Assembly: GCA_963703285.1 (NCBI GenBank) | Contig: OY969807.1 | Coordinates: 1,984,001 to 2,048,000, forward strand | DNA from: an uncultured Nitrososphaerota archaeon | Lineage (GTDB): Archaea; Thermoproteota; Nitrososphaeria; Nitrososphaerales; Gagatemarchaeaceae | Length of the DNA: 64,000 bases | Reading direction: 5' to 3' | Shown here: piece after piece, positions 1-60,508 of the stretch | Position numbering within the stretch: position 1 is the stretch's first letter | Layout: every line of letters starts with the position of its first letter | Notes under the pieces: generated by a model | Seen by the model: the letters and a program-made list of their open reading frames with translations, nothing else | Told to the model about the DNA's origin: nothing | Database searches by the model: none | Position numbers and translations under genes: made by a program

Positions 1-666
1 ATGTACCCGGGAGACTACCTTGGCAGCGTCACCGTGGACGGGATCGCCGTCGACAAGGCGAAGATGGGGGAGATTTCCCAGAAGGTCGGCCTCCTCTTCC
101 AGAACCCCGAGAACCAGATATTCATGTTCTCGGTCGAGCGCGACGTAGCCTTCGGGCTGGAGAACCTCGGCCTCCCCAGGGAGGAGATCAGGAGGAGGGT
201 CGACGAGGCCCTGCGCCTCCTCGGGATAACGTCGCTCGCACTCCGCGCTCCGCACGAGCTCTCCGACGGTCAGAAGCAGCGCGTCGCCCTGGCGGGCGTC
301 ATCGCCATGAGGCCCAAGCTGATCATCCTCGACGAGCCCACCTCCCTCCTCGACCCGCAGAGCGCGTCCGAGCTCGTCTCCCTCGTACGCGACCTCAACA
401 GGGACCTCGGCATCACCTTCGTCATCGTCGAGCACAGGCTCGAGCTGCTGACACCCGTCGCGGACAAGATCGTGGTCATGGACAGGGGACGCAAGGTGAT
501 GGAGGGGACGCCCGAGGACGTCCTCACCGACACGCGGGCCATCGGCTACGGCATAGCCGTCCCCCCCGTCTCCCTGCTCTACTCCGACCTGAAGAGGGAC
601 GGAATGGTGCTGGGGAAGGTCCCGGCGACGCCCCGCGAGCTCGCGGAGGAGGTAAACAGCAGTTGA
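1..666 (+). CDS. ECF transporter ATPase subunit (5'-truncated by window)
   Basis: FQNPENQIF Q-loop, LSDGQKQRVALAG signature, ILDEPT Walker B; upstream of a second ATPase and EcfT. Confidence 0.9.
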   Translation: MYPGDYLGSVTVDGIAVDKAKMGEISQKVGLLFQNPENQIFMFSVERDVAFGLENLGLPREEIRRRVDEALRLLGITSLALRAPHELSDGQKQRVALAGVIAMRPKLIILDEPTSLLDPQSASELVSLVRDLNRDLGITFVIVEHRLELLTPVADKIVVMDRGRKVMEGTPEDVLTDTRAIGYGIAVPPVSLLYSDLKRDGMVLGKVPATPRELAEEVNSS

Positions 667-1477
667 GCCTCATCGAGTTCAGGGACGTCACGTTCGTCCA
701 TCAGAACGGGGTGACGGCACTTAGTGACGTCAGCCTGGGCGTCGAGAAGCAGGAGCTGGTAGGCATAGTTGGCGAGAACGGAGCCGGAAAGACCACGCTC
801 GTGAAGCACATCAACGGGCTGCTCAAGCCCACCACCGGCTCGGTCTCGGTCAACGGCAAGAACACCCGCGACGTCTCCACCGCCACCCTCGCTCGCGAGG
901 TGGGGATAGCCTTCCAGAACCCCGACCACCAGCTCTTCTCCGAGAGCGTCGAGAACGAGATCACCTACGCCCTGAAGAACTTCGGGTTCGACAGCGGCGT
1001 GATCCAGAGGAGACTGGACTGGGCGCTCGGCTTCTTCGGGCTGGAGGAGTACAGGAAGTCCTCGCCCCTGATACTGAGCGGGGGGAGAAGAAGCGCCTCA
1101 CCCTCGCCTCCATACTGGCCTGGGACCCCTCCATCGTCGTCCTGGACGAGCCGACGGTGGGCCAGGACTCCATCCAGAAGGAGAAGCTCGCCGGGATCGT
1201 CAGGATGCTCCACGAGGCTGAGAAGACGATCATCATTGTCTCGCACGACGTCGAGTTCCTCTGGAGGCTCCAGCCGAGGATCCTCGTGATGAAGCAGGGG
1301 AGGGTGGTCGGCGACGGCCCCTGCGCGACGGTCATGCACGACGCAGCACTCCTCGCGAACGCGAGGGTGACCCAGCCCCAGCTGGTCCAGCTCTACGACG
1401 ACCTGGATGAGAGGCCCGGGACGCCCTTCCCCGACGTCTCGGCGGCGAGGAGCTGGATCGGGAGGGGGAGGAGCTAG
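663..1477 (+). pseudogene. ECF transporter ATPase subunit 2, frameshifted at a G run near 1080-1085 (probably a sequencing error)
   Basis: GENGAGKTT Walker A in ORF 663-1289; LDEPTVGQD and C-terminus continue in the other frame; one extra G restores LSGGEKKR. Confidence 0.8.
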
Positions 1478-1478
1478 C

Positions 1479-2222
1479 GTGTACTGGATCACCGGCGGCT
1501 TCCTCTTCAGGAGGGTCGTCTCCCCGTTCCACAAGCTCGACCCCCGGATCAAGCTTGCGGTAGCGGCCGAGCTCTTCGTGCTCTCGCTCGCCGCCTCCTC
1601 CGTCATCCCGATCCTCACCGTCCTCGCCTCGATAATCGCGATCGCTGCCGTGGCCAAGTCGCTGAAGAGGATAGGCAGGACGATGGCCTTCTCGCTCCTC
1701 TTCGCCGCGTTCATCTTCGGGATCAACCTGGCATTCGGGCTTGGCCTCCTAAGGTCGTTCACCTACGCCCTGCGCTTCCTCGCGATCATCAGCTCCTCCA
1801 GCCTCTTCTTCGTCACCACCTCGCCAGACGAGCTCGAGCAGATCATGAAGTGGATGAGGATACCCCGGGACGCGGTCTTCGCCTTCGTGACGGCGGTGAG
1901 GTTCATCCCGGTGGTCATGCTAGACACCTTCCAGATCATGGACGCGCAGAAGTCGAGGGGGCTCGAGCTGGAGAAGGGAAGCCTGCTCACCCGCGTCCGC
2001 AACATGGTCCCGATACTCATCCCCCTCGTCGTGAACTCTGTCATCCGGTCGGGCGAGCTCGCGGAGGCGATGGAGTCCAGGGGCTACGGCTCGACGCCCC
2101 ACCCCACCTCCCTCTACAGGATGAAGCTGAAGTGGTACGACTGGGCCGTCTTCCTCGTCAGCGCGGCCGCGTTCGCGGCAGCACTGTATATCTACCTCTT
2201 CCTCCGGTTTCCGCTCCCATGA
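1479..2222 (+). CDS. ecfT: ECF transporter transmembrane component T
   Basis: LDPRIKL start, RFIP, AQKSRG and AMESRG motifs. Confidence 0.9.
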   Translation: MYWITGGFLFRRVVSPFHKLDPRIKLAVAAELFVLSLAASSVIPILTVLASIIAIAAVAKSLKRIGRTMAFSLLFAAFIFGINLAFGLGLLRSFTYALRFLAIISSSSLFFVTTSPDELEQIMKWMRIPRDAVFAFVTAVRFIPVVMLDTFQIMDAQKSRGLELEKGSLLTRVRNMVPILIPLVVNSVIRSGELAEAMESRGYGSTPHPTSLYRMKLKWYDWAVFLVSAAAFAAALYIYLFLRFPLP

Positions 2223-2902
2223 TTCCGCCGCGAGTGGTAGTTGACGAGAGGGAGAGGGGCTGCGGCGTCCCGGAGGAGCTCGCAAAGTTGAACGTCAGGG
2301 TCTACTTCAGCCGCCTTCCGACCGCCGACTACGTGATCAGCCCCGAGGTCGCCGTCGAGAGGAAGGCGCTCGCCGACTTCGTCTCCTCGGTCTACGACGG
2401 GAGGTTCTTCGTCCAGGTCTCCGCCCTCTCGAGCGCCTACCGCAAGCCGTACCTTCTGGTGGAGGGCGACATCAAGGAGCTCGCCCGGCTGGCCAAAAAC
2501 GTGAACTCCTACTACGGCGCGGTCGCCTCGGTCACGCTCGCCTACGACCTGAGGGTCATCCACACGGCAGACCCCGCCCAGACCGCCTCGGCCATAGCCG
2601 CCCTGATCAAGCACAGCCGGGCCAGGCCCGCGATTATGGGCGCCATCGCCCCGCCCCCCAAGGCGAAGGACGAGCCGCGGCAGCAGCTCTACCTGGTCTC
2701 CTCGCTCCCCGGGGTGGGGACGAAGCTCGCGAAGAGGATGCTCTCAAGGTACGGCACGCCCAGGAAGATAATGGGCCTGACCGAGTCCCAGCTGGCCATG
2801 GTCCAGGGCCTCGGAGGCAAGAGGGCCGCCCGGATAGCCCACATGCTCGACGCGCCGTACGCTTCGCAGAGCGGCCTGCCGATCCAGGAGAGGCTCGAAT
2901 GA
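2219..2902 (+). CDS. xpf: XPF/ERCC4 structure-specific nuclease (short archaeal form)
   Basis: VVVDERE, ADY...VERK nuclease motif, C-terminal HhH2 (LPGVGTKLA, VQGLGGKRA). Confidence 0.88.
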   Translation: MIPPRVVVDERERGCGVPEELAKLNVRVYFSRLPTADYVISPEVAVERKALADFVSSVYDGRFFVQVSALSSAYRKPYLLVEGDIKELARLAKNVNSYYGAVASVTLAYDLRVIHTADPAQTASAIAALIKHSRARPAIMGAIAPPPKAKDEPRQQLYLVSSLPGVGTKLAKRMLSRYGTPRKIMGLTESQLAMVQGLGGKRAARIAHMLDAPYASQSGLPIQERLE

Positions 2903-3531
2903 GGATCTCCGTCATCGGGGGCACGGGCGACCTCGGTCTAGGGCTGGCGGCCAGGCTCGCCAGGTCTCACGAAGTGATGATCGGCTCCAGGGACGCATCC
3001 CGCGCCGCCGAGGCGGCGGTGAGGGCCTCCGTCCTCTCCGGCTCGCACGTCCTGGGGATGGGGAACGGCGAGGCGGCGCGCCGATCTGAGGTCTCCATCC
3101 TGGCCATCCCGGACCTGCCCTCGGAGGAGTTCCTCGATTCGCTGAAGCCGGACCTGGCCGGGAAGCTGGTCATCTCCCCGATCGTCGGGATGAAGATGGA
3201 GAAAGGGCTGTTCTCGCCCTCGCTCGAATCGGGCTCGGCGGCGGAGAGGGTCGCCTCGGTGCTGCAGACCAGGGTGGCCGGCGCGTTCCACACCGTCCCC
3301 GCCGCGAGGCTACTCGAGGTGAACCGGGAGCTGGACTACGACGTGCTTGTCACGGCCGATTCGAGGGAGGTCTACGCCGAGGCCGCGAGTGTCGTCTCCA
3401 GCGTGCCGCGTTTGCGGCCCCTCTACGCAGGACCTCTGAGGAACTCCAGGATGGTCGAGGGCATCACGCCGACCCTCCTCAACCTGGCCAAGCTCAACAA
3501 GCTTAGGACCCCCTCGCTCAAGATCGTCTGA
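2899..3531 (+). CDS. npdG: F420H2:NADP+ oxidoreductase (NpdG/Fno family)
   Basis: IGGTGDLGLGLA Rossmann motif, IGSRDASRA, AFHTVPA, AGPLRNSRMVE. Confidence 0.85.
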   Translation: MRISVIGGTGDLGLGLAARLARSHEVMIGSRDASRAAEAAVRASVLSGSHVLGMGNGEAARRSEVSILAIPDLPSEEFLDSLKPDLAGKLVISPIVGMKMEKGLFSPSLESGSAAERVASVLQTRVAGAFHTVPAARLLEVNRELDYDVLVTADSREVYAEAASVVSSVPRLRPLYAGPLRNSRMVEGITPTLLNLAKLNKLRTPSLKIV

Positions 3532-52817: not shown

Positions 52818-55007
52818 CTACTCCTTGTCGATGAACTCTGCGGGGTTCGGCGGCTCCGGCGCCAGCCCCTTCCTCTTCCTTATCTCCGTGACCAGCGGCA
52901 GGAGCATGTTCGTCGGGACCGACTGCCAGAGCTTGAAGTTCGTGTTCCAAGTGGCCTTGCCCGCGGTCGCGCCCCTCATGACCTGCGAGAGGTCGAAGGT
53001 CTCGGCCGCCGGTATCTCGCCCTGGATGATTGTCACGACCTCCCTCTGCTCGACGTTGATGAGCTTCCCCCGCTTCGAGCTGATGACGCCCGTGATGGCG
53101 CCTATCAGGTCCCCGGGCCCCTTCACCTCTATCCCGAGTATCGGCTCCAGCAGCGTCGGGTTCGCCGTCAGCATCGCGCCCAGCACCGCCCTCCTCGTCG
53201 CGGGCATGAGCTGCGCGTAGGTCCTGTGCGCCGGGTCCTCGTGCGGGACGTAGTGGGTCAGCGTCACCTTCACACCCCTGCAGATCTCGTAGGCGAGCGG
53301 CCCGTTCTCCATGATGTCCTCGAACCCGGCCCGTATGGAGTCCATCGACTCCTGCAGGTACTGGACTCCCTTGGTCTCCTCGGTGAGCATGTTGCCCCTG
53401 GGGTCTATGGTCACGACCGACTTGGCGTCGTCCGACGACCAGCCGTTGTCCCTCAGCGTCTTCTGGATGCCCTTTTTGTCCGCCATCTCGTTGAGCGTCC
53501 CGTTCCTGATGAGCTCGACGATGTGCGGGTCGAGCGGCTCTACCTTGATGAATATCTTGTTGTGCCTGTTGGGGGAGCGCGACATCACCGGGCCCGCCGT
53601 GCCCCTGACCGCCTCCCTGTAGTTGATGATGGGCGGCGAGGTGATTATCTCGAGCCCCTGCTGCTGGAGCATCGTCGTCGCTATCTCCAGGTGGAGGACG
53701 CCCATCCCGGACATCAGCGTCTCGCCCGACTCCTGGTTGATGGTGATGATGAGGTTCGGGTCCTCGATGTTCAGCCTGCGCATCGCCTCGACGAGCTTCG
53801 GGAGGTCCCTCGGGTGCTTCGCCTCGACCGCAGTCGTCACAACAGGCTCGGAGACGTAGTGTATCGACTCGAACGGGACGACGTCCTTGAGGTTCGAGAT
53901 TGTCTCCCCCGAGCGGATGTCGAGCCCCAGCAGCGCCGGGATGTTGCCCGCCGGGAGCGAGTCCACTATCTCCCTCTGGAAGCCCATGAAGAGCTGGACC
54001 GACTGTATCTTCCCCTCCCTCTTGGAGTTGAGCAGGTAGACGGGGTCGCCGTTCGAGACGGAGCCGGAGAAGAGCCTCCCGACGCCCACCAGGCCAGCGG
54101 CCGGGTCGACGACGACGTTGGTGACCATCATGACCATCGGGCCGTTCTCGTCGCACGCCAGGAGCGACTTGCCGACGTCGCTGTTGAGGTCGCCCTGCCA
54201 AATCTTGGGGATGCGGTAGGCCTGCGCGACGTGCGGCGGCGGGTGGTGCTTCACTACCATGCCCAGGAGAGCCTCGTGGAGCGGGAGCTTCTTGCCCAGC
54301 CCCTCGGGGCCCACTGTCTGGTAGGCCTCGATGATGTCCTTGAACGACATGTTCGCCTGCTTCGCCATGACCGCGTTGAAGCCCCACTTGTCCTTGGACG
54401 AGCCGAAGGCGACCTGCCCGGCCGCGACCGTCACCTTCCACTTCTCCTTGTACTCGGGCTCCGCGTAGGTGTCGATTAGGCGGTTGAAGTCGTTTACGAT
54501 GTTGAAAAGCCACTTCTGCATCGCTTCGGGGCCTAAACGAAGCTCTTTTATCAAACGGTCGATTTTATTGATGTATAAGACCGGACGGACCCGTTCTTCG
54601 AGTGCTTGCCGCGTTACAGTCTCAGTCTGGGTCATAACTCCTTCAACCGAGTCTACAACGACGATTGCGCCGTCAACGGCCCTCAAACTGCGCGTTACTT
54701 TGCCAGTGAAGTCGATGTGGCCCGGCGTATCGATTAGATTGATTACATAGGGCTGCCCTTCCTCTTCGTAGTACAAAGTGACGTTTGCTGCCTTAATCGT
54801 CATCTGTCTGGACTGTTCCAGCTCCATATAGTCCAAAGCGAGCGCCTGTCCGGCAACGGAGGGTGAAAGCATCCCGCATGCGGCTAAAAGGGAGTCGGAC
54901 GTAGTGGTCTTCCCGTGGTCGACGTGTGCGATGATCCCCAGGTTCCGTATGTGCGTCCTATCGTGGACGATTTTTAGAGCTTCGGTTGTCGACTTGAACT
55001 TCGGCAT
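52818..55007 (-). CDS. fusA: Translation elongation factor 2 (archaeal EF-2)
   Basis: AHVDHGKTT, DTPGH, NKID, HEDPAHR diphthamide loop; 729 aa. Confidence 0.98.
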   Translation of the reverse strand: MPKFKSTTEALKIVHDRTHIRNLGIIAHVDHGKTTTSDSLLAACGMLSPSVAGQALALDYMELEQSRQMTIKAANVTLYYEEEGQPYVINLIDTPGHIDFTGKVTRSLRAVDGAIVVVDSVEGVMTQTETVTRQALEERVRPVLYINKIDRLIKELRLGPEAMQKWLFNIVNDFNRLIDTYAEPEYKEKWKVTVAAGQVAFGSSKDKWGFNAVMAKQANMSFKDIIEAYQTVGPEGLGKKLPLHEALLGMVVKHHPPPHVAQAYRIPKIWQGDLNSDVGKSLLACDENGPMVMMVTNVVVDPAAGLVGVGRLFSGSVSNGDPVYLLNSKREGKIQSVQLFMGFQREIVDSLPAGNIPALLGLDIRSGETISNLKDVVPFESIHYVSEPVVTTAVEAKHPRDLPKLVEAMRRLNIEDPNLIITINQESGETLMSGMGVLHLEIATTMLQQQGLEIITSPPIINYREAVRGTAGPVMSRSPNRHNKIFIKVEPLDPHIVELIRNGTLNEMADKKGIQKTLRDNGWSSDDAKSVVTIDPRGNMLTEETKGVQYLQESMDSIRAGFEDIMENGPLAYEICRGVKVTLTHYVPHEDPAHRTYAQLMPATRRAVLGAMLTANPTLLEPILGIEVKGPGDLIGAITGVISSKRGKLINVEQREVVTIIQGEIPAAETFDLSQVMRGATAGKATWNTNFKLWQSVPTNMLLPLVTEIRKRKGLAPEPPNPAEFIDKE

Positions 55008-55075: not shown

Positions 55076-58000
55076 TTGCCCTCAACCGAAACCGACATTC
55101 CGACCGCCCAGACAAATCCCGTAATCTCAACTCCAGAGTCTTGGAGACAACGAGCTAACTCCGAACTAGAGAACATAATCCAGCTCTTCTCATCGAAAGA
55201 ACTTCCAGACCTGTGCGCGAAGGCAATCATCAACGCCCCTGAGAAACCCTCCTCAAAGTGGTCGTTCGGAAACCAACTTCTCATGCTCCTGGCTGGAACC
55301 TCTGATGCCCGCGGTTTCAGGCAGTGGAACGAAGTTGGGCGCTGGGTCAGCAAGGGCGCGAAGGCGTTCTGGATCCTGGGGCCGGTCAGGAAGAAGGTCA
55401 AGACCAGCAGAGACGCCTTAGAAGACCAGGGAGAAGGGGCGCAGGAGTTCAGGGAAATCCTCGTGGGGTTCAAGGCGATTGCCGTCTTCAGGTACGAGGA
55501 CACCTACGGCAAGGACCTCCCTGTCTACGAACCGAGAAGCACGCCTCCGCTCATGGAAGTCGCCGAGAGGTTCGGCATGAAGGTCCAGTACGAGCGACTC
55601 GCCCCGGGCGTGTACGGAGCTACCGACCACACGAACAAGACAATCGTCTTGGCCACGGAAGACTGGGACACCTTCTTTCATGAACTAGGCCACGCCGTCC
55701 ACAGGAGTTTCGAACCTAAGAGCGGTCACGGGCAGGAGCTTGAGGCGGAGACGGTAGCTCAGCTCGTCGCAGCCACCCTCGCCAGGCTCTACGACAGACC
55801 AGCAGACAACTTCAGCTGGAGCTACATCGCCAGCTATGCAGCCTCGAACAGCCCTCAGCAGGTCGGCAGAATGTGCATGCGTGTACTAGCGCGTCACGAA
55901 AAGAGGTAGCCTGCTACCTCTCTGCTGTAAGGAGCAATGCCCGAAGAACTGTAGTCAAACATCAGAACAGCCGTCCTAAACCGTAGGACTATATTCCCCT
56001 ACCTACCACAACTATTCCATGCAAAGTAGCGCCATTCGGACAAAGGTATTAATGACGCACGACCACATCAAACACAGACACGACATGAAGACTTCCAGAA
56101 GAGGAATTGGAACAGCAATCATTGCCATTGTTTCAGTCGTGGTCATCCTGGTCGGAGCGACAGGAGTCATTGTACTCACGTCACAGTCGAATACTTCCCA
56201 TTCTTCCAGTCCATCGACTTCTTCCAACTTATCATCGACCACTACTCTGCCGGTCAATACCAGTCAAACTCTTACCACCCAGTCGCAAACGACCTCGACG
56301 ACGATCTCTAGCTCGTGCTCGGGGTATCAGTCGGGCGGTGATTGTCTTGCGACCTACAACTACACTTTCATCGTTTCCGTAAACTATACTGGTCCGTGGA
56401 AGTTGACGTATCTGGGATACAACAACCTCGGCCAGACCAATCCTACGAATGTCAGTGGGAGCTACACTGGTAGCGGTTTCTTCGCCAAGAACGTTACCAT
56501 GACATCAGTAGTTACCGGCGGCCTGACTCTTTGCGCCACAGCACAGAAACTCGACAGCTCCAACAATACCCTCATCGTAACCGTCACTGGCTCCAATGAA
56601 ACATCCGTTCCGTATGGGTCTACCTCGTACTGCGCGAGCGCAGTACCATAAGCTGGAACACCTCATCACCAGCATGCTCAGTCATCTCCATCCCACACTA
56701 CAGTAGGTAAGGCTGGGCGTCCTCGACCGCAAGGTCAGGACTCCCGAAGGTGAAAGTCGTCTGGCTTGTTGGGCTCTGAGCAGAGTCCAGCATGGGGCTA
56801 GCCCCAGACATAGACAGCCGATAAGGGAACAGCCTAGGTTCCCGAGACGGCGACCTTAGGACGGACACGGCAACGTTAAGGAATCCACAACAGGTAGCGC
56901 ATGCGCCATGCGAAGACGCTAGGATAGGACGAAGCGCGCATGGTATAGAGAGCTACCACACTTTACTCAAGGACGAAGTGTGGCAAATCCCCTCCTTCAG
57001 GCAGGCGAGAACCGGCCAGCGAGCTGGAGCTCTCTCGGTAACTGGTGGGTGCCTAAATCCGTCCGCAGAAGTGCTCCTTACAGAACGTGAGACCCAACCC
57101 GGTCTGACTCCCGTCGATAAAGGGCGAGAGGATAGGACGGCTGCGTCCGACTTGACCGGGTTGGCTCCGAGGAGTCATAGTACCCTGAACGTCGGCCAAT
57201 TACCGACCTGTGGGGAAGGACTCTAGCCTGAAATCCGAAGTCTGAACTGTGCAGAAGGATGGATTCAGTCCACGAAACACAACAGGAGGTGAGAGAATGG
57301 ACTCAAACAATCAGTTGGGTGAGCAATCACCCAATCCAGTAGTCCGCAAGGACGAAGGCAGAGTCATTCTCCATATCCAGAGTGGGCTCGCCATAGCAGC
57401 AACAAGACAACCGAACAAACGGTTCCACAACCTACACCCGCTACTCTGGAGAAGAGAGTGGCTCAAATCGGCTCTGGAAGCAGTCCTAGACAACACTGGC
57501 GCGAAGACCTCAGGCGTAGACGGAGTGTGCGGGGCAGACCTGCACGAACCGTCTGCTAGGGCCAGATTTGTCGAGGAACTGCGGACAGAACTGAAACACA
57601 AGACCTACCACCCCTCGCCTGTCCTGAGGAAGTACATTCCGAAGGCCAGCGGAGGGAAACGACCAATAGGCATTCCAACGCTGAAGGATAGGACAGTTCA
57701 GATGGTCTTGAAGATGGTTCTCGAACCAATCTTTGAGGCCGACTTCCTGCCCAATTCCAACGGCTTCCGACCTGAGCGAAGCACGCTGGAGTGCGTATTG
57801 CCCATGTATCAGTACGGGGACAGCAAGCGTCTGTACGAATGGGTCATCGAGGGAGACATCGAAGGGTGCTTCGACAACATCGACCACTGGATACTGATGG
57901 AAGCTATAGAACGAAGGATAGCCGACCCAAAAGTCCTGTGGCTGATCCGCCGATTCCTCAAGGCACCCGTCATCGAGAAGGGCATCCGAACTCAGACCAA

Positions 58001-59244
58001 GAAAGGAACCCCGCAAGGCGGAGTCCTTTCGCCACTCCTAGCCAACATCTACCTCAACGAGTTTGACCAGCATTGGTACGAGAGCTGGGGCAAACTCACC
58101 TACAAGCAGAGAAGACTGCGACGTGAGAAAGGGCAGGCAAGCTGCGTGCTGTTCAGGTATGCGGACGACTTCATCCTGAGCGTGAAAGGCACTCAGGAGC
58201 AGGCCACCGCAATCATGGACAACATACGCAGCTTCTTCACGGAGAAGCTGAGGCTGAGCCTGTCCGCAGAAAAGACGCGTGTCGTGCATCTGGAAGCTGG
58301 ATTCGATTTCCTCGGATTTCGCATCCAGCGAGTAAGGCTAGACCACGGCATGTGCGTCAGGATACGACCAACACAAAAGAACCTACTCCGACTCAAGTAC
58401 AAACTGCAAGCCATGCTAGGGCCGAGCGCGAAGAGCGACGACCCTCAGATGAAGATTGCAGCCATGAACAGAGTCTTGAGAGGATGGGCAAACTACTACA
58501 GAACCGTCAACTCACATCAGCAATTCGCTACGGGAGACTTTCTGGCACAGCGCCTGTTCTATCAATGGTATTGTAGGAAATACCAGATAAGCGTCCAGAA
58601 ATGCCTCTCCGTCGTGCTCAGAAACGGTAGTGTAGTCATCCAAAGAGGGCCGGTCAAGACCGAACTCTTTAGGATGAACTCGAACAAGAGCATGCACACC
58701 TCACTGAATCACAGACTTGTTTGGAAATACAGGTCAATCAGCAATCCATACATCCGCCAGAACCACACCGCAACCAGCGTATCAGAGGAAAACGACGACC
58801 CAATCGTTGATGTGCCCAACATCCACCCGATTGCGCCCGAGTACGATGAAACCTATCTCTCCAACCGCTTTCTGGCGTTTGAGAGGGATGGATGGAGGTG
58901 TACTCTGTGCGGCAGTCGGGAAAGACTTCAGGCGCACCATAGGGAACCTGTCCCCAAAGGAATGGTCTTCAACCCGCAGGTCGTGCACCGGGTCGAAAAT
59001 CTTCAGACATTGTGCGCGACATGCCACAGTAGGCTACCTAGAAACTAGGCAGCCGAAACCCATCCATCCAATGCACAAGAAGAGGACGGAGGACGTAGGG
59101 GTGAAAGCCCGGTGATGCGAAAGTATCACGCCGGGTTTGGGAGGGAGGGTGCGTGTTTCCTGCCTGAAGCAATTCTAGCGTGGCAACGCACTCTTACCTC
59201 AGGACAGGACCAAGAAAGTCCTCGACCTCATCTATGCGACCTAA
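55076..59244 (+). CDS. ardC: ArdC-like ssDNA-binding/zincin antirestriction protein, split by group II intron (exons 55076-55888 and 59203-59244; 284 aa spliced)
   Basis: WSFGNQLL, RGFRQWNEVGRWVSKGAKA, HELGH; exon junction reads MCMRVL|DRTKKVLDLIYAT*. Confidence 0.8.
56085..56651 (+). CDS. Passenger gene: class III signal (pilin-like) surface protein with S/T-rich linker
   Basis: MKTSRRG/IGTAIIAIVSVVVILVG, S/T linker, beta domain with 4 Cys and N-glycosylation sequons; TATA-like AAAGGTATTAAT about 32 bp upstream. Confidence 0.78.
   Translation: MKTSRRGIGTAIIAIVSVVVILVGATGVIVLTSQSNTSHSSSPSTSSNLSSTTTLPVNTSQTLTTQSQTTSTTISSSCSGYQSGGDCLATYNYTFIVSVNYTGPWKLTYLGYNNLGQTNPTNVSGSYTGSGFFAKNVTMTSVVTGGLTLCATAQKLDSSNNTLIVTVTGSNETSVPYGSTSYCASAVP
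57297..59048 (+). CDS. ltrA: Group II intron reverse transcriptase/maturase with HNH endonuclease
   Basis: RPIGIPTLKDR, GDIEGCFDNI, GTPQGGVLSPLLAN, RYADD, RGWANYY, C-terminal CxxC..HH..NLQTLCxxCH; RBS AGGAGGTGA. Confidence 0.96.
   Translation: MDSNNQLGEQSPNPVVRKDEGRVILHIQSGLAIAATRQPNKRFHNLHPLLWRREWLKSALEAVLDNTGAKTSGVDGVCGADLHEPSARARFVEELRTELKHKTYHPSPVLRKYIPKASGGKRPIGIPTLKDRTVQMVLKMVLEPIFEADFLPNSNGFRPERSTLECVLPMYQYGDSKRLYEWVIEGDIEGCFDNIDHWILMEAIERRIADPKVLWLIRRFLKAPVIEKGIRTQTKKGTPQGGVLSPLLANIYLNEFDQHWYESWGKLTYKQRRLRREKGQASCVLFRYADDFILSVKGTQEQATAIMDNIRSFFTEKLRLSLSAEKTRVVHLEAGFDFLGFRIQRVRLDHGMCVRIRPTQKNLLRLKYKLQAMLGPSAKSDDPQMKIAAMNRVLRGWANYYRTVNSHQQFATGDFLAQRLFYQWYCRKYQISVQKCLSVVLRNGSVVIQRGPVKTELFRMNSNKSMHTSLNHRLVWKYRSISNPYIRQNHTATSVSEENDDPIVDVPNIHPIAPEYDETYLSNRFLAFERDGWRCTLCGSRERLQAHHREPVPKGMVFNPQVVHRVENLQTLCATCHSRLPRN
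59105..59202 (+). ncRNA. Group II intron domains V and VI
   Basis: AGC triad, GAAA loop, 34-nt DV; GAGG-GAGGGTGCGT pairs with ACGCACTCTT-A-CCTC. Confidence 0.93.
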
Positions 59245-59491
59245 AGCAACCCAAATGCGGCTATTATTCAATAGCCATTATCTCTCTTTTTTGAACGAGT
59301 TTTTAGATGAGAAACCGACAAAGGCCCCCTGTTTAGAGAGTTTTGTTCATTACAGGATATGTTGCATTCGTTGCGCGAGAGACTTTGACTATAGAAGTGC
59401 GATGACCAATCAAGTTTATACGATTCCTTATTCTGAAGAGCCGCCATGATTAAGCCTGGTCTTGCCTTGGTTGCGGTCGGTGGGTTCTCAC

Positions 59492-60109: not shown

Positions 60110-60508
60110 ATGCCTCTCAAATACCCTGAATTCAGCGAACTTGCAACGATTAACAAGGAAGCCGTCGCTCTCACAGGTGAAGAACACAACTACGACTCGT
60201 ACGATGAAGAGGGGCTACGAGCAATACTTGCAAATCTTCAGGGGCTGTACAACGACCTTCCCGGTCTTGAGTGCATAACTAACAAGGTAACTTACCTCAT
60301 TTTCAGCATAGCCTACGAGCAACGCTTTCACGAAGGAAACAAGCGTACAGCCTTGATCATCGGGGAGACGTTTCTGAAGAGAAACGGGTACACAATCGAC
60401 ATCGAGGACCAAGGATTATTGCAAATATTGGATAGGTGTGCAATTCAAGCGGCAACCTTAAAAGACCTCTACCCAGAAATCAAACGTCTGATCAAGAATG
60501 ACCGATGA
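60110..60508 (+). CDS. Fic/Doc family protein (motif His replaced by Gln)
   Basis: EQRFHEGNKRTA, FLKRNG. Confidence 0.82.
   Translation: MPLKYPEFSELATINKEAVALTGEEHNYDSYDEEGLRAILANLQGLYNDLPGLECITNKVTYLIFSIAYEQRFHEGNKRTALIIGETFLKRNGYTIDIEDQGLLQILDRCAIQAATLKDLYPEIKRLIKNDR

Follow-up and report, generated by a model that had tools for sequence, protein, structure and literature searches.

Positions 55889-59202 (+) of the window, by which we mean the whole 64,000-nucleotide stretch of DNA analysed, probably constitute a group II intron retroelement that has recently been active in its Nitrososphaerales host, a soil archaeon, and that, besides the RT-maturase-HNH protein encoded in its domain IV, holds a complete host-type gene inside a small, 5'-proximal hairpin loop of domain I. 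Group II introns are usually described with only their own mobility protein. The intron is 3314 nt long with the ends GCGCG...CUCAG, and its domains V and VI (59103-59202, +) match the full RF00029 model (1-77) at 57.1 bits against a gathering score of 40, the branch A probably being that at 59196. The consensus ends of group II introns are 5' GUGYG and 3' AY; the 5' end here differs from GUGYG and is treated as a variant, the relatives read at this end all having GCGCG. With the Rfam models for D1-D4 there was a sub-threshold match to RF01998 over D2/D3 (E=2.5).

The borders of the intron are fixed by its other occurrences. A second copy in the same genome (G000:C1:1882206-1885520, -) is 100% identical over exactly 55889-59203, including the 188-aa ORF that is the cargo, and lies 155 kb away, antisense within a tetR-like gene; its junctions are clean and exact to the base, and its excision restores the tetR-like frame. 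The two insertion loci have no homology with each other, and both copies encode an intact, 583-aa intron-encoded protein (IEP). Because the second copy is identical, ORF included, and cleanly inserted, the ORF is part of the mobile unit. An empty allele is represented by a relative's contig that joins 55888 directly to 59203, skipping exactly 55889-59202, and no direct repeats of the target-duplication type were found flanking the intron. By the second copy, its junctions and the empty-allele joint, position 55889, which the preliminary description had given as the start, is exactly the intron 5' end; the end at 57090 proposed there did not hold, the intron 3' end being 59202. The possibility that the 5' splice site lies beyond the ORF is rejected by the identical second copy, its junctions, the empty allele and the register of EBS2/IBS2 pairing, and a twintron is likewise rejected, since an E-value scan of 55700-59400 gives a single D5/D6 and no second RT. 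A third copy in the genome has lost everything from distal D1 through D4 and is followed by a 3' exon homologous, with synonymous changes, to exon 2 of the host gene described below; RF00029 scores above its cut-off for all three copies.

The intron sits in sense orientation and in frame within an ArdC-like gene, exon 1 of which (55076-55888, +) encodes an ArdC-N-like protein with a HELGH motif (Pfam ArdcN, E=5.1e-5, 23.9 bits against a cut-off of 22.6) and exon 2 of which (59203-59244, +; DRTKKVLDLIYAT, then stop) follows in frame, such that in-silico splicing keeps the frame open across the exons to give 284 aa. Exon positions -14 to -8 (IBS2, GCAUGCG, 55875-55881, +) form 7/7 pairs with EBS2 (CGCAUGC, 56898-56904, +), an assignment supported by covariation in the same register across 8 related introns; for these the mean with their own exons is 6.75/7 pairs, compared with 2.52 (maximum 5) for the 56 mismatched intron-exon combinations. 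At the second, tetR-like site there are 6/7 EBS2 pairs in the correct register, for which we estimate a probability by chance of ~1%. The hairpin at 56956-56983 (+) occupies one alignment column with that whose loop is EBS1 in relatives, where it pairs 6/6 with the last exon bases in three related introns (G474, G542B and G534); in the window copy the loop forms, by eye, only ~4/6 pairs at either insertion site, and this weak pairing could mean that splicing from these sites is inefficient. The segment TGGTAT, the sole 6/6 match found by script for EBS1 of the window copy, was rejected as a chance match because it is conserved among introns with different exons.

The IEP (57297-59048, +; 583 aa) comprises RT, maturase (X) and HNH endonuclease regions (RVT_1, 1.2e-39; GIIM, 2.3e-10; HNH, 4.3e-5), with a YADD motif at residue 288, and belongs to a clade of about 80 proteins, with relatives at 54-92% identity. 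In metagenomes the IEP search yielded a single locus (L035), whose sequence breaks off 5' before D1, and neither the IEP nor the cargo alignment gave a match in viral contigs.

Domain I is closed by two helices, both of which are kept in the MFE fold. In the basal helix UCACG (55894-55898, +) pairs with CGUGA (57086-57090), with UCAUG/CAUGA as a compensatory change in G520; in the second, a 12-bp helix, 55925-55936 (+) pairs with 57072-57083 with 100% complementarity, and this helix is conserved in relatives, with a U-A to C-G exchange in G506. Between the 5' strands lies a small hairpin (55902-55921, +) whose sequence varies in relatives while the potential to form a hairpin is kept, and the 3' strands of the two helices (57072-57090, +) mark the end of domain I, as indicated by the MFE fold and by relatives. 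The ORF lies upstream of EBS2, of the EBS1 hairpin and of these 3' strands, i.e. inside domain I. Also in domain I is a GNRA-capped hairpin (GUCCUCGACC-GCAA-GGUCAGGAC, 56719-56741, +) which, compared with copy 3, shows two compensatory changes and GCAA replaced by GUAA; it may be a theta-like tetraloop arm, the name 'theta' being our tentative assignment. Domain II (57093-57164, +), with the stem CCCAACCCGGUC/GACCGGGUUGG, was read from the sequence, and its distal part is a second cargo site in relatives.

The hairpin hosting the cargo has its 5' strand (ACUGUAGU) at 55948-55955 (+) and its 3' strand (ACUACAGU) at 56697-56704 (+), as identified from the inverted repeat and from relatives. The ~750-nt insertion (55952-56700, +), which contains a promoter motif, the ORF and a tail, stands in place of the terminal loop of this hairpin, as located by joints in relatives: their contigs pass from 55946/55951 to 56701 with 10-11 nt intervening, and genome relatives lack intron positions ~64-812. 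In runs X5 and X7 the bins over the cargo ORF were without cover, and only contigs joining across the insert were used. In 7 cargo-less introns, close relatives of ~82% nucleotide identity, the hairpin has 5-6 bp and a GNRA cap in all but one, and their alignment (n=7) shows compensatory changes at three of the five apical stem pairs; two of these relatives (G491 and G542A) have a full-length open IEP, and others (G506, G452 and G512:C170) are truncated or fragmentary copies. Since the insert projects from a peripheral hairpin, it leaves untouched the basal helices, both EBS2 and the hairpin of EBS1, and domains II-VI. A tree of seven intron cores (supports of 60-62) does not separate a single from a repeated origin of the D1 insert.

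The preliminary description had placed the ORF in a loop of domain I enclosed by four nested helices, and it is borne out as to the looping out: in relatives without cargo the peripheral hairpin has a short stem, in most cases with a GNRA cap. All four inverted repeats that it named are present, i.e. UCACG/CGUGA, the perfect 12-nt pair, CCGTCCTAA/TTAGGACGG (55971-55979/56856-56864) and CCCTACCTAC/GTAGGTAAGG (55997-56006/56703-56712, 90% complementary), and the outer two are those kept in the MFE fold; the third and fourth, however, are not ancestral ribozyme helices, because their 5' arms lie inside the insert and are absent from cargo-less relatives. The fourth had been taken as the helix immediately flanking the ORF, which was incorrect, the true bracket being ACTGTAGT/ACTACAGT (55948-55955/56697-56704). 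The absence of transposase and homing-endonuclease features, also noted there, agrees with our domain and repeat searches, which additionally found neither TIR nor TSD. An IS, transposon or MITE passenger was accordingly rejected, there being no transposase domain, no direct repeats at the edges and no inverted repeat other than the hairpin stem.

The cargo gene (56085-56651, +) encodes a 188-aa protein that, from the ORF, its homologues and the model, has an N-terminal anchor, an S/T-rich linker and a beta domain with 4 Cys. That the ORF is real is supported by 50 homologues, with all 10 residues invariant in the family being kept. Previously described features of the protein were for the most part recovered: the S/T-rich stalk corresponds to a linker (residues 33-77, 67% S/T) and the Cys-containing beta domain, with its 4 Cys, to a domain predicted with confidence by AlphaFold (residues ~90-188). 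The proposed class III signal, and with it the term pilin, was not upheld, Pilin_N (PF07790) giving E=0.13 and 13.6 bits against a cut-off of 25.2, with only 2 of 38 members of the cargo family matching it at E<=1. Prepilin-peptidase sites consist of basic residues, then G/A, then a hydrophobic stretch; the N terminus RRG-IGTAII here (RRA-IG in many homologues) resembles such a site, although a plain signal anchor would fit it equally well. There is a single, N-terminal hydrophobic helix, and there are 9 N-X-S/T sequons. For the cargo protein, Foldseek searches of the PDB and BFVD gave 0 matches at E<=0.001, no family in Pfam or NCBIfam was above its cut-off, and the best score in the ESM Atlas was 0.85, to unnamed clusters only. 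The product would be an extracellular beta-sandwich protein with a membrane anchor and, probably, glycosylation.

Homologues of the cargo are numerous (252 representatives at E<=1e-3), and the family is present in 33 of 97 genomes of the GTDB family. Intron sequence was found at 0 of 16 homologue loci in one set and at 1 of 29 in another, neither of which includes the closest homologues, P0001-P0005; by these comparisons, the cargo is a member of a multi-copy host family, most tested members of which are free-standing. For cargo of the copy-3 type dN/dS is 0.50-0.81, i.e. constraint is weak.

A promoter-like motif of 18 nt (TTCGGACAAAGGTATTAA, 56035-56052, +) precedes the cargo start codon by 32 nt and is common to four different D1 cargos. 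It occurs at 15 sites in the genome, compared with 0 for a reversed control; 12 of the 13 ORFs downstream of it begin with a membrane helix, and the spacing from motif to start is 28-39 nt in 11 of the 13. About a dozen chromosomal genes for proteins with an N-terminal anchor share the motif, which suggests a putative regulon of small, anchored surface proteins.

The check that had been proposed for the cargo reading, a look at close IEP homologues, came out positive: their introns have other cargo lodged in this D1 loop, with D2 and D4 as further sites. In the D1 loop there is a 214-aa cargo in G534, the family of which is present in 32 of 96 other genomes, and there are small ORFs in G542B and G517; D2 holds a 169-aa cargo in G474 (insert of 656 nt) and a 323-nt insert in G520; and D4 holds a 207-aa cargo behind the IEP in G512, with its family in 18 of the 23 genomes of the genus, and a cargo in G538. 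The six of these introns with cargo ORFs (G534, G542B, G517, G474, G512 and G538) score above the RF00029 gathering threshold. By hhalign these other cargos have no relation to that of the window, and every sense cargo in the lineage is a membrane-anchored extracellular protein. The IEP frame is open in the cargo carriers G474 and G512; the IEPs of G534 and G538 contain stops or frameshifts, and two further cargo copies are intron remnants. Given several decayed carriers, inserts might accumulate mostly in dying introns.

Because related introns also carry other such genes, introns of this type would move ordinary cell genes around, and as judged from these comparisons the intron lineage as a whole appears to act as a gene vehicle. 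The view in the preliminary description of a retroelement serving as vehicle for a cell-surface gene is thus favoured, in so far as the mobile unit includes the ORF and sister introns hold what look to be interchangeable cargos. In mechanistic terms, the intron would be transcribed with the ArdC-like gene, and the ribozyme would fold with the ~750-nt insert projecting from the peripheral D1 hairpin. Maturase-assisted splicing would be followed by reverse splicing into DNA sites picked by EBS/IBS pairing, with target-primed reverse transcription then copying the intron, cargo included. Retromobility with cargo is indicated by the existence of two identical copies whose ends are exact, by the lack of a target duplication and by the 6/7 EBS2 pairs at the second site. 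The cargo itself is likely expressed from its own promoter, the 18-nt motif being at the standard distance, and its most likely role would be that of a moron-like accessory gene, providing a surface phenotype of benefit to the host or to the mobile element carrying the intron. More broadly, and as a proposal that we advance tentatively, with somewhat more doubt than conviction, this archaeal intron lineage could be a retro-mobile gene-cassette platform, in which the loops of the D1 hairpin, D2 and D4 dock and exchange promoter-bearing surface-protein genes that reverse splicing copies to new loci and possibly new hosts. If so, the host could use the platform to multiply, spread and vary its surface proteins, and the intron would gain a selectable benefit.

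It is unlikely that the ORF instead serves the element's own biology, whether as a surface/entry-exclusion, mating or immunity factor of a conjugative or integrated element or as a factor that the intron needs. The homing site in an anti-restriction-type gene, typical of conjugative elements, is in keeping with such a role, and the non-random, one-kind nature of the sense cargos hints at selection for a surface phenotype; however, seven close relatives have an intact D1 hairpin without an insert there, the cargos are unrelated in sequence and belong to large families of chromosomal genes that have the promoter motif in common with them, and the second copy lies outside any conjugative or integrated element.

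Less probable still is that the ribozyme is dead, the insert being tolerated junk and the second copy a product of DNA recombination or gene conversion. The weak EBS1/IBS1 pairing at both sites and the visible decay of several insert-bearing relatives would fit this explanation, but it does not readily account for copies with intact IEPs that are 100% identical over 3314 nt, nor for a non-homologous second site with base-exact junctions, a restorable tetR-like frame and a number of EBS2 pairs that chance would rarely give. Moreover, D5, D6 and all D1 helices are intact, both ArdC-like exons are still open, and G474 and G512 combine cargo with open IEP frames. The most improbable of the alternatives takes the ~750-nt segment for a small mobile cassette in its own right (IS, MITE or integron-like), with the hairpin as its target and the intron only as its landing site: different ORFs do occupy the same loop in five distinct introns, a shared 5' 'platform' of hairpin and promoter motif precedes four different ORFs, and fragments of cargo plus stub occur at non-syntenic places in three genomes, but no cargo has a transposase, recombinase or homing-endonuclease domain, the insert edges are without direct repeats and have the hairpin stem as their only terminal inverted repeat, the promoter motif is an ordinary chromosomal one with 12 other genome sites, the fragments always have intron D1 sequence on both sides, and the identity between the two copies stops at the borders of the intron, not at those of the insert.

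The reading of the element as a mobile intron carrying a host-type gene finds parallels in several known systems, and the literature searched gave no report of a group II intron with natural cargo unrelated to mobility. Prophage 'morons' and integron cassettes are self-contained accessory genes with their own promoter, present at permissive sites with interchangeable occupants; here, by contrast, an RNA-based retroelement carries the genes, and loops of its ribozyme provide the permissive sites. If confirmed, retro-mobile introns would join phages, plasmids, transposons and integrons as vehicles of accessory genes, and the cargo would give a handle on a surface-protein regulon in non-ammonia-oxidising soil/peat Nitrososphaerales. 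Organellar ribozymes of another class resemble the present case in that they, too, hold ordinary genes as loops on a peripheral helix, but those ribozymes are not retromobile and their genes are essential residents, not variable accessory cargo.

Among mobile prokaryotic group II introns the present element can be compared with Ll.LtrB, reported to reside in a relaxase gene of lactococcal conjugative elements (PMC1874635), with which it shares a six-domain ribozyme, a D4 IEP of the RT-maturase-En type, EBS/IBS targeting, clean insertion without target duplication and a location in a gene of the conjugation or anti-restriction type. It differs from introns of the Ll.LtrB type in having, in domain I, a further gene that does not serve mobility and has a promoter of its own, in having sister introns with cargo in D2 and D4, and in its 5' end, GCGCG. 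Some group II introns encode LAGLIDADG homing endonucleases, with the ORF in a domain IB loop or in domain III, and these likewise have an ORF in a peripheral D1 loop or at another non-D4 site and show repeated, modular acquisition of ORFs at several structural positions (PMC13190283). Their ORF is a mobility enzyme replacing the RT, in organellar or rRNA introns (PMC13190283), whereas the present intron retains its RT and the extra ORF is an ordinary gene of cell-surface type. Finally, engineered targetrons also use a group II intron as a vehicle for foreign genes, the cargo being in domain IVb and exogenous sequence being reported to lower the insertion efficiency (PMC8524655). If confirmed, the naturally tolerated cargo sites in the D1 apical loop and in D2 could guide targetron design; unlike in those artificial systems, the cargo of ~750 nt in D1 is natural, and the element appears to have moved with it.

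The single match to a group II intron model in the window is domains 5 and 6 (D5/D6, 59103-59202; 57.1 bits against a gathering score of 40), upstream of which lies a 583-aa intron-encoded protein (IEP, 57297-59048) with RT, maturase and HNH domains and a YADD motif. The 188-aa cargo ORF (56085-56651) is on the same strand as the IEP, 650 nt further upstream, and an ArdC-N-like gene (open frame of 271 codons, HELGH motif) lies directly 5' of the intron. The intron occupies 55889-59202 (3314 nt, ends GCGCG...CUCAG); its excision in silico fuses ...MCMRVL to DRTKKVLDLIYAT and the stop codon in frame, giving 284 aa. Among public contigs covering the region, one from a relative represents an intron-less allele, running from 55888 to 59203 and skipping the 3314 nt with ends GC..AG, and independent contigs identical to the window span both edges of the insert that carries the cargo (55500-56095 and 56643-56899). 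The G+C content is 50% for the insert, 57% for the D1-D3 core and 53% for the IEP (compared over 55952-59048), with 61% for the whole window; the intron and its cargo differ in composition from the chromosome. With respect to the surroundings, the immediate upstream neighbour of the ArdC-like gene is aEF-2 (52818-55007, minus strand), and on the downstream side is a Fic/DOC-family ORF (60110-60508), whose E=7.3e-5 is at the Pfam cut-off. A small integrated element may adjoin a core gene here, with the ArdC-like gene as its marker.

The genome of the organism (2.25 Mb, a single contig) contains a second copy of the intron (C1:1882206-1885520, minus strand), which is 100% identical to window 55889-59203 (query 40-3354) and has flanks unrelated to those in the window. 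There it interrupts, in antisense orientation, a frame that is tetR-like. One G could belong to either end of this copy, and taking the intron as 55889-59202 restores the tetR-like frame exactly (...AEEAGVSQGLAYRYFSSKDEI...). In the extracted locus (L002, G000:C1:1880706-1887020; intron C1:1882207-1885520, minus strand), the tetR-like regulator adjoins a TFIIB gene. Being antisense, the second copy could not be spliced from the tetR-like mRNA, so the regulator should be inactivated. No direct repeats were found in the flanks of the intron or of the insert. The identical second copy with exact ends, the intron-less allele and the lack of flanking repeats together imply that the ORF is part of a unit that moved whole, with exact intron ends; as proposed in the preliminary description, the ORF belongs to the intron rather than lying upstream of a true 5' splice site.

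Close relatives of the intron occur within the same GTDB family (97 genomes), where 10 genomes have IEP matches at E<=1e-40 and 12 have D1-D3 DNA matches. In the order sample, 304 genomes from other families gave no match at E<=1e-60; in the class sample, two matches at E<=1e-20 came from 400 further genomes. Nucleotide identity between the window intron and these relatives is ~82% across positions 1 to ~63 and ~813-3314 of the intron, and the relatives are without positions ~64-812. In place of the insert, seven cargo-less copies (G491, G542A, G474, G520, G452, G506 and G512:C170) have a hairpin with a stem of 5-6 bp and the tetraloops GGAA, GAAA, GCAA (four times) and GAAG, six of the seven being of the GNRA type; RNAalifold analysis of the cargo-less copies reveals compensatory changes in three of five apical stem pairs. 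Two metagenome contigs are arranged likewise, with joints 55946 to 56701 and 55951 to 56701 and, respectively, 11 and 10 letters between. The equivalent stem in the window is ACUGUAGU/ACUACAGU (55948-55955/56697-56704), with a loop of ~750 nt.

The ORF lies inside domain I. In the minimum free energy fold of 55889-57095, the outermost pairs are UCACG/CGUGA (55894-55898/57086-57090) and a perfect 12-bp helix (55925-55936/57072-57083); in relatives the former becomes UCAUG/CAUGA, and one U-A pair of the latter becomes C-G. All four nested complementarities initially proposed to enclose the ORF are real; however, the arms of CCGTCCTAA and CCTACCTAC lie inside the insert that relatives lack, and these two pairings are therefore not ancestral intron helices. 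GUCCUA/UAGGAC (55973-55989) can form a local hairpin of its own, which is kept in the decayed third copy of the intron.

The target-recognition elements of domain I lie 3' of the ORF. EBS2 (CGCAUGC, 56898-56904) pairs at 7/7 positions with exon positions -14 to -8 and, in the same register, at 6/7 with the ectopic tetR-like site. Across eight related introns with different targets, the EBS2 columns match their own exons at a mean of 6.75/7; for mismatched intron-exon combinations (n=56) the mean is 2.52 and the maximum 5. The loop of the hairpin at 56956-56983 has the EBS1 role in relatives: in G474, G542B and G534 it pairs at 6/6 positions, in a single alignment column. In the window intron it pairs, as judged by eye, at only ~4/6 with either 5' exon (window exon 55883-55888). 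This is a weakness of the functional reading; either EBS1 of the window copy is located elsewhere, or its choice of 5' splice site is relaxed.

The check proposed in the preliminary description gives a positive result: the same D1 loop carries other, interchangeable cargo in related introns. In G534 a 720-nt insert encodes a 214-aa protein with a membrane helix, an S/T linker and a Cys-rich domain, which is unrelated to the window cargo (hhalign probability 0.5%) and has its own family in 32 of 96 other genomes. G542B and G517 have anchored ORFs of 93 and 94 aa behind the same promoter block as the window cargo. The third copy in the window organism (C1:838064-839352) has in this loop a 161-aa paralogue 34% identical to the window cargo; this intron is without everything from distal D1 to D4 and keeps D5/D6 (45.5 bits). 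Its layout (L005 1396-2696, G000:C1:838020-839320) is the 5' part of D1, the paralogue, ~95 nt of D1, a foreign segment of ~316 nt that has on its minus strand an ORF for 68 aa with two helices, and D5/D6, i.e. an IEP-less derivative; its 3' exon shares homology with exon 2 of the ArdC-like gene in the window, and its 5' flank adjoins a trpE-like gene. In two other genomes the copy-3 paralogue (83% at the amino acid level) is again flanked on each side by a D1 stub, at locations that are not syntenic, and cargo of this type has a dN/dS of 0.50-0.81. In a protein tree the window cargo groups with the database homologues P0001-P0005 (support 86/94), apart from the copy-3 type on a very long branch; the loop occupant has thus been either exchanged or extremely diverged.

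Other domains are also occupied. D2 carries a 656-nt insert in G474 (169-aa anchored protein, with the IEP frame open and no homologues in the other five genomes of its genus) and a 323-nt insert in G520 (antisense 66-aa ORF with two helices). In D4, behind the IEP, are a 764-nt insert in G512 (L038 2234-2998), encoding a 207-aa anchored protein whose family is present in 18 of 23 genomes of its genus, and a 398-nt insert in G542A with an antisense 132-aa ORF. The stretch from the IEP stop to D5 is a third variable site, with the promoter block and ORFs there in G538, a more distant, frameshifted intron. D5/D6 scores above gathering in all these cargo-bearing introns, and none of the cargos matches a Pfam family above cut-off. 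At the third site, a metagenome relative (87% identical in nucleotides) has an insert of 292 nt in which no ORF is clear (L035 1749-2041). G542 has two different full-length introns of the lineage 378 nt apart in the same orientation (L082, G542:C8:1201500-1212500), one with the D4 antisense ORF and the other with the small D1 ORF.

The window cargo has a short, basic N terminus followed by a single hydrophobic helix, a linker of 67% S/T, nine N-glycosylation sequons, and a C-terminal domain with four Cys residues that is a beta sandwich in the AlphaFold model (pLDDT block means of 71-97 from residue 91 onward; overall mean 72). Its assignment as a pilin is not borne out by Pilin_N (just E=0.13); the RRG/RRA-IG motif plus hydrophobic stretch is as compatible with a plain signal anchor as with a class III signal. 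Foldseek gave no matches at E<=0.001 in the PDB and viral models, and a structure Atlas search nothing at 0.9 or more. Fifty homologues in a large protein set are all unnamed, Nitrososphaerales being the sole organism label; the family comprises 252 cluster representatives at E<=1e-3, and the window cargo retains each of the 10 columns that are invariant in an alignment of 38 sequences. The cargo family is a host family, present at 58 places in 33 of the 97 genomes: neither D5/D6 nor an IEP was found at any of 16 loci in species-representative genomes, some of which end at contig ends, and intron D1 sequence was found at one of 29 further loci. In the window organism, the family is confined to the three intron copies.

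The TATA-like box ascribed to the cargo is supported by motif counts and spacing. An 18-nt promoter-like block, TTCGGACAAAGGTATTAA (56035-56052), ends 32 nt 5' of the ATG and is kept upstream of four different D1 cargos. With at most one mismatch, the motif has 15 sites in the window organism's genome versus none for a reversed control; 13 have an ORF of at least 60 aa within 110 nt downstream, of which 12 begin with a membrane helix and 11 have a spacing of 28-39 nt. Twelve further sites in this genome include C1:1284071, 1286045, 1287559, 1651592, 1660130 and 1744564, and the form TTCGGACAAA-N-(C/G)TATTAA marks a set of genes on the chromosome whose products are anchored at the N terminus and often rich in S/T. 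This pattern resembles a promoter, or a regulon, common to surface proteins, and since the motif is common to anchored-protein genes, the cargo bears that chromosomal set's promoter type. This suggests either capture of the gene as DNA together with its promoter, or a position behind a resident promoter platform.

Given the anatomy, the cargo-less relatives, the variety of cargos, the host origin and promoter of the cargo, and the identical second copy with intron-exact ends at an EBS2-compatible target, the simplest account is a retroelement, working or very recently working, that bears accessory genes in insertion-tolerant ribozyme loops. Judged from sequence, the intron would splice with its insert present and the cargo would be expressed, perhaps to the benefit of host or element. 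Against a working retroelement count the weak EBS1 pairing at both sites, the decay of several cargo-bearing relatives and the weak constraint on copy-3-type cargo. The ORF does lie inside the intron, within a corrected set of helices, and its proposed interpretation as cargo of a retroelement is supported, and extended by the other cargos in D1, D2 and D4 of related introns.

Full-text searches of the main texts of papers turned up no description of a prokaryotic group II intron with natural non-mobility cargo, and the word 'cargo' is absent from the main text of a preprint surveying archaeal group II introns (10.1101/2024.12.10.627823). Cargo has been engineered into DIVb of targetrons, which lowers their efficiency (PMC8524655). 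In group II introns that encode LAGLIDADG proteins, ORFs are described outside D4, among other places in the loop of domain IB; these ORFs are mobility enzymes (PMC13190283). In group I introns ordinary genes lie within ribozyme loops (PMC3073962).
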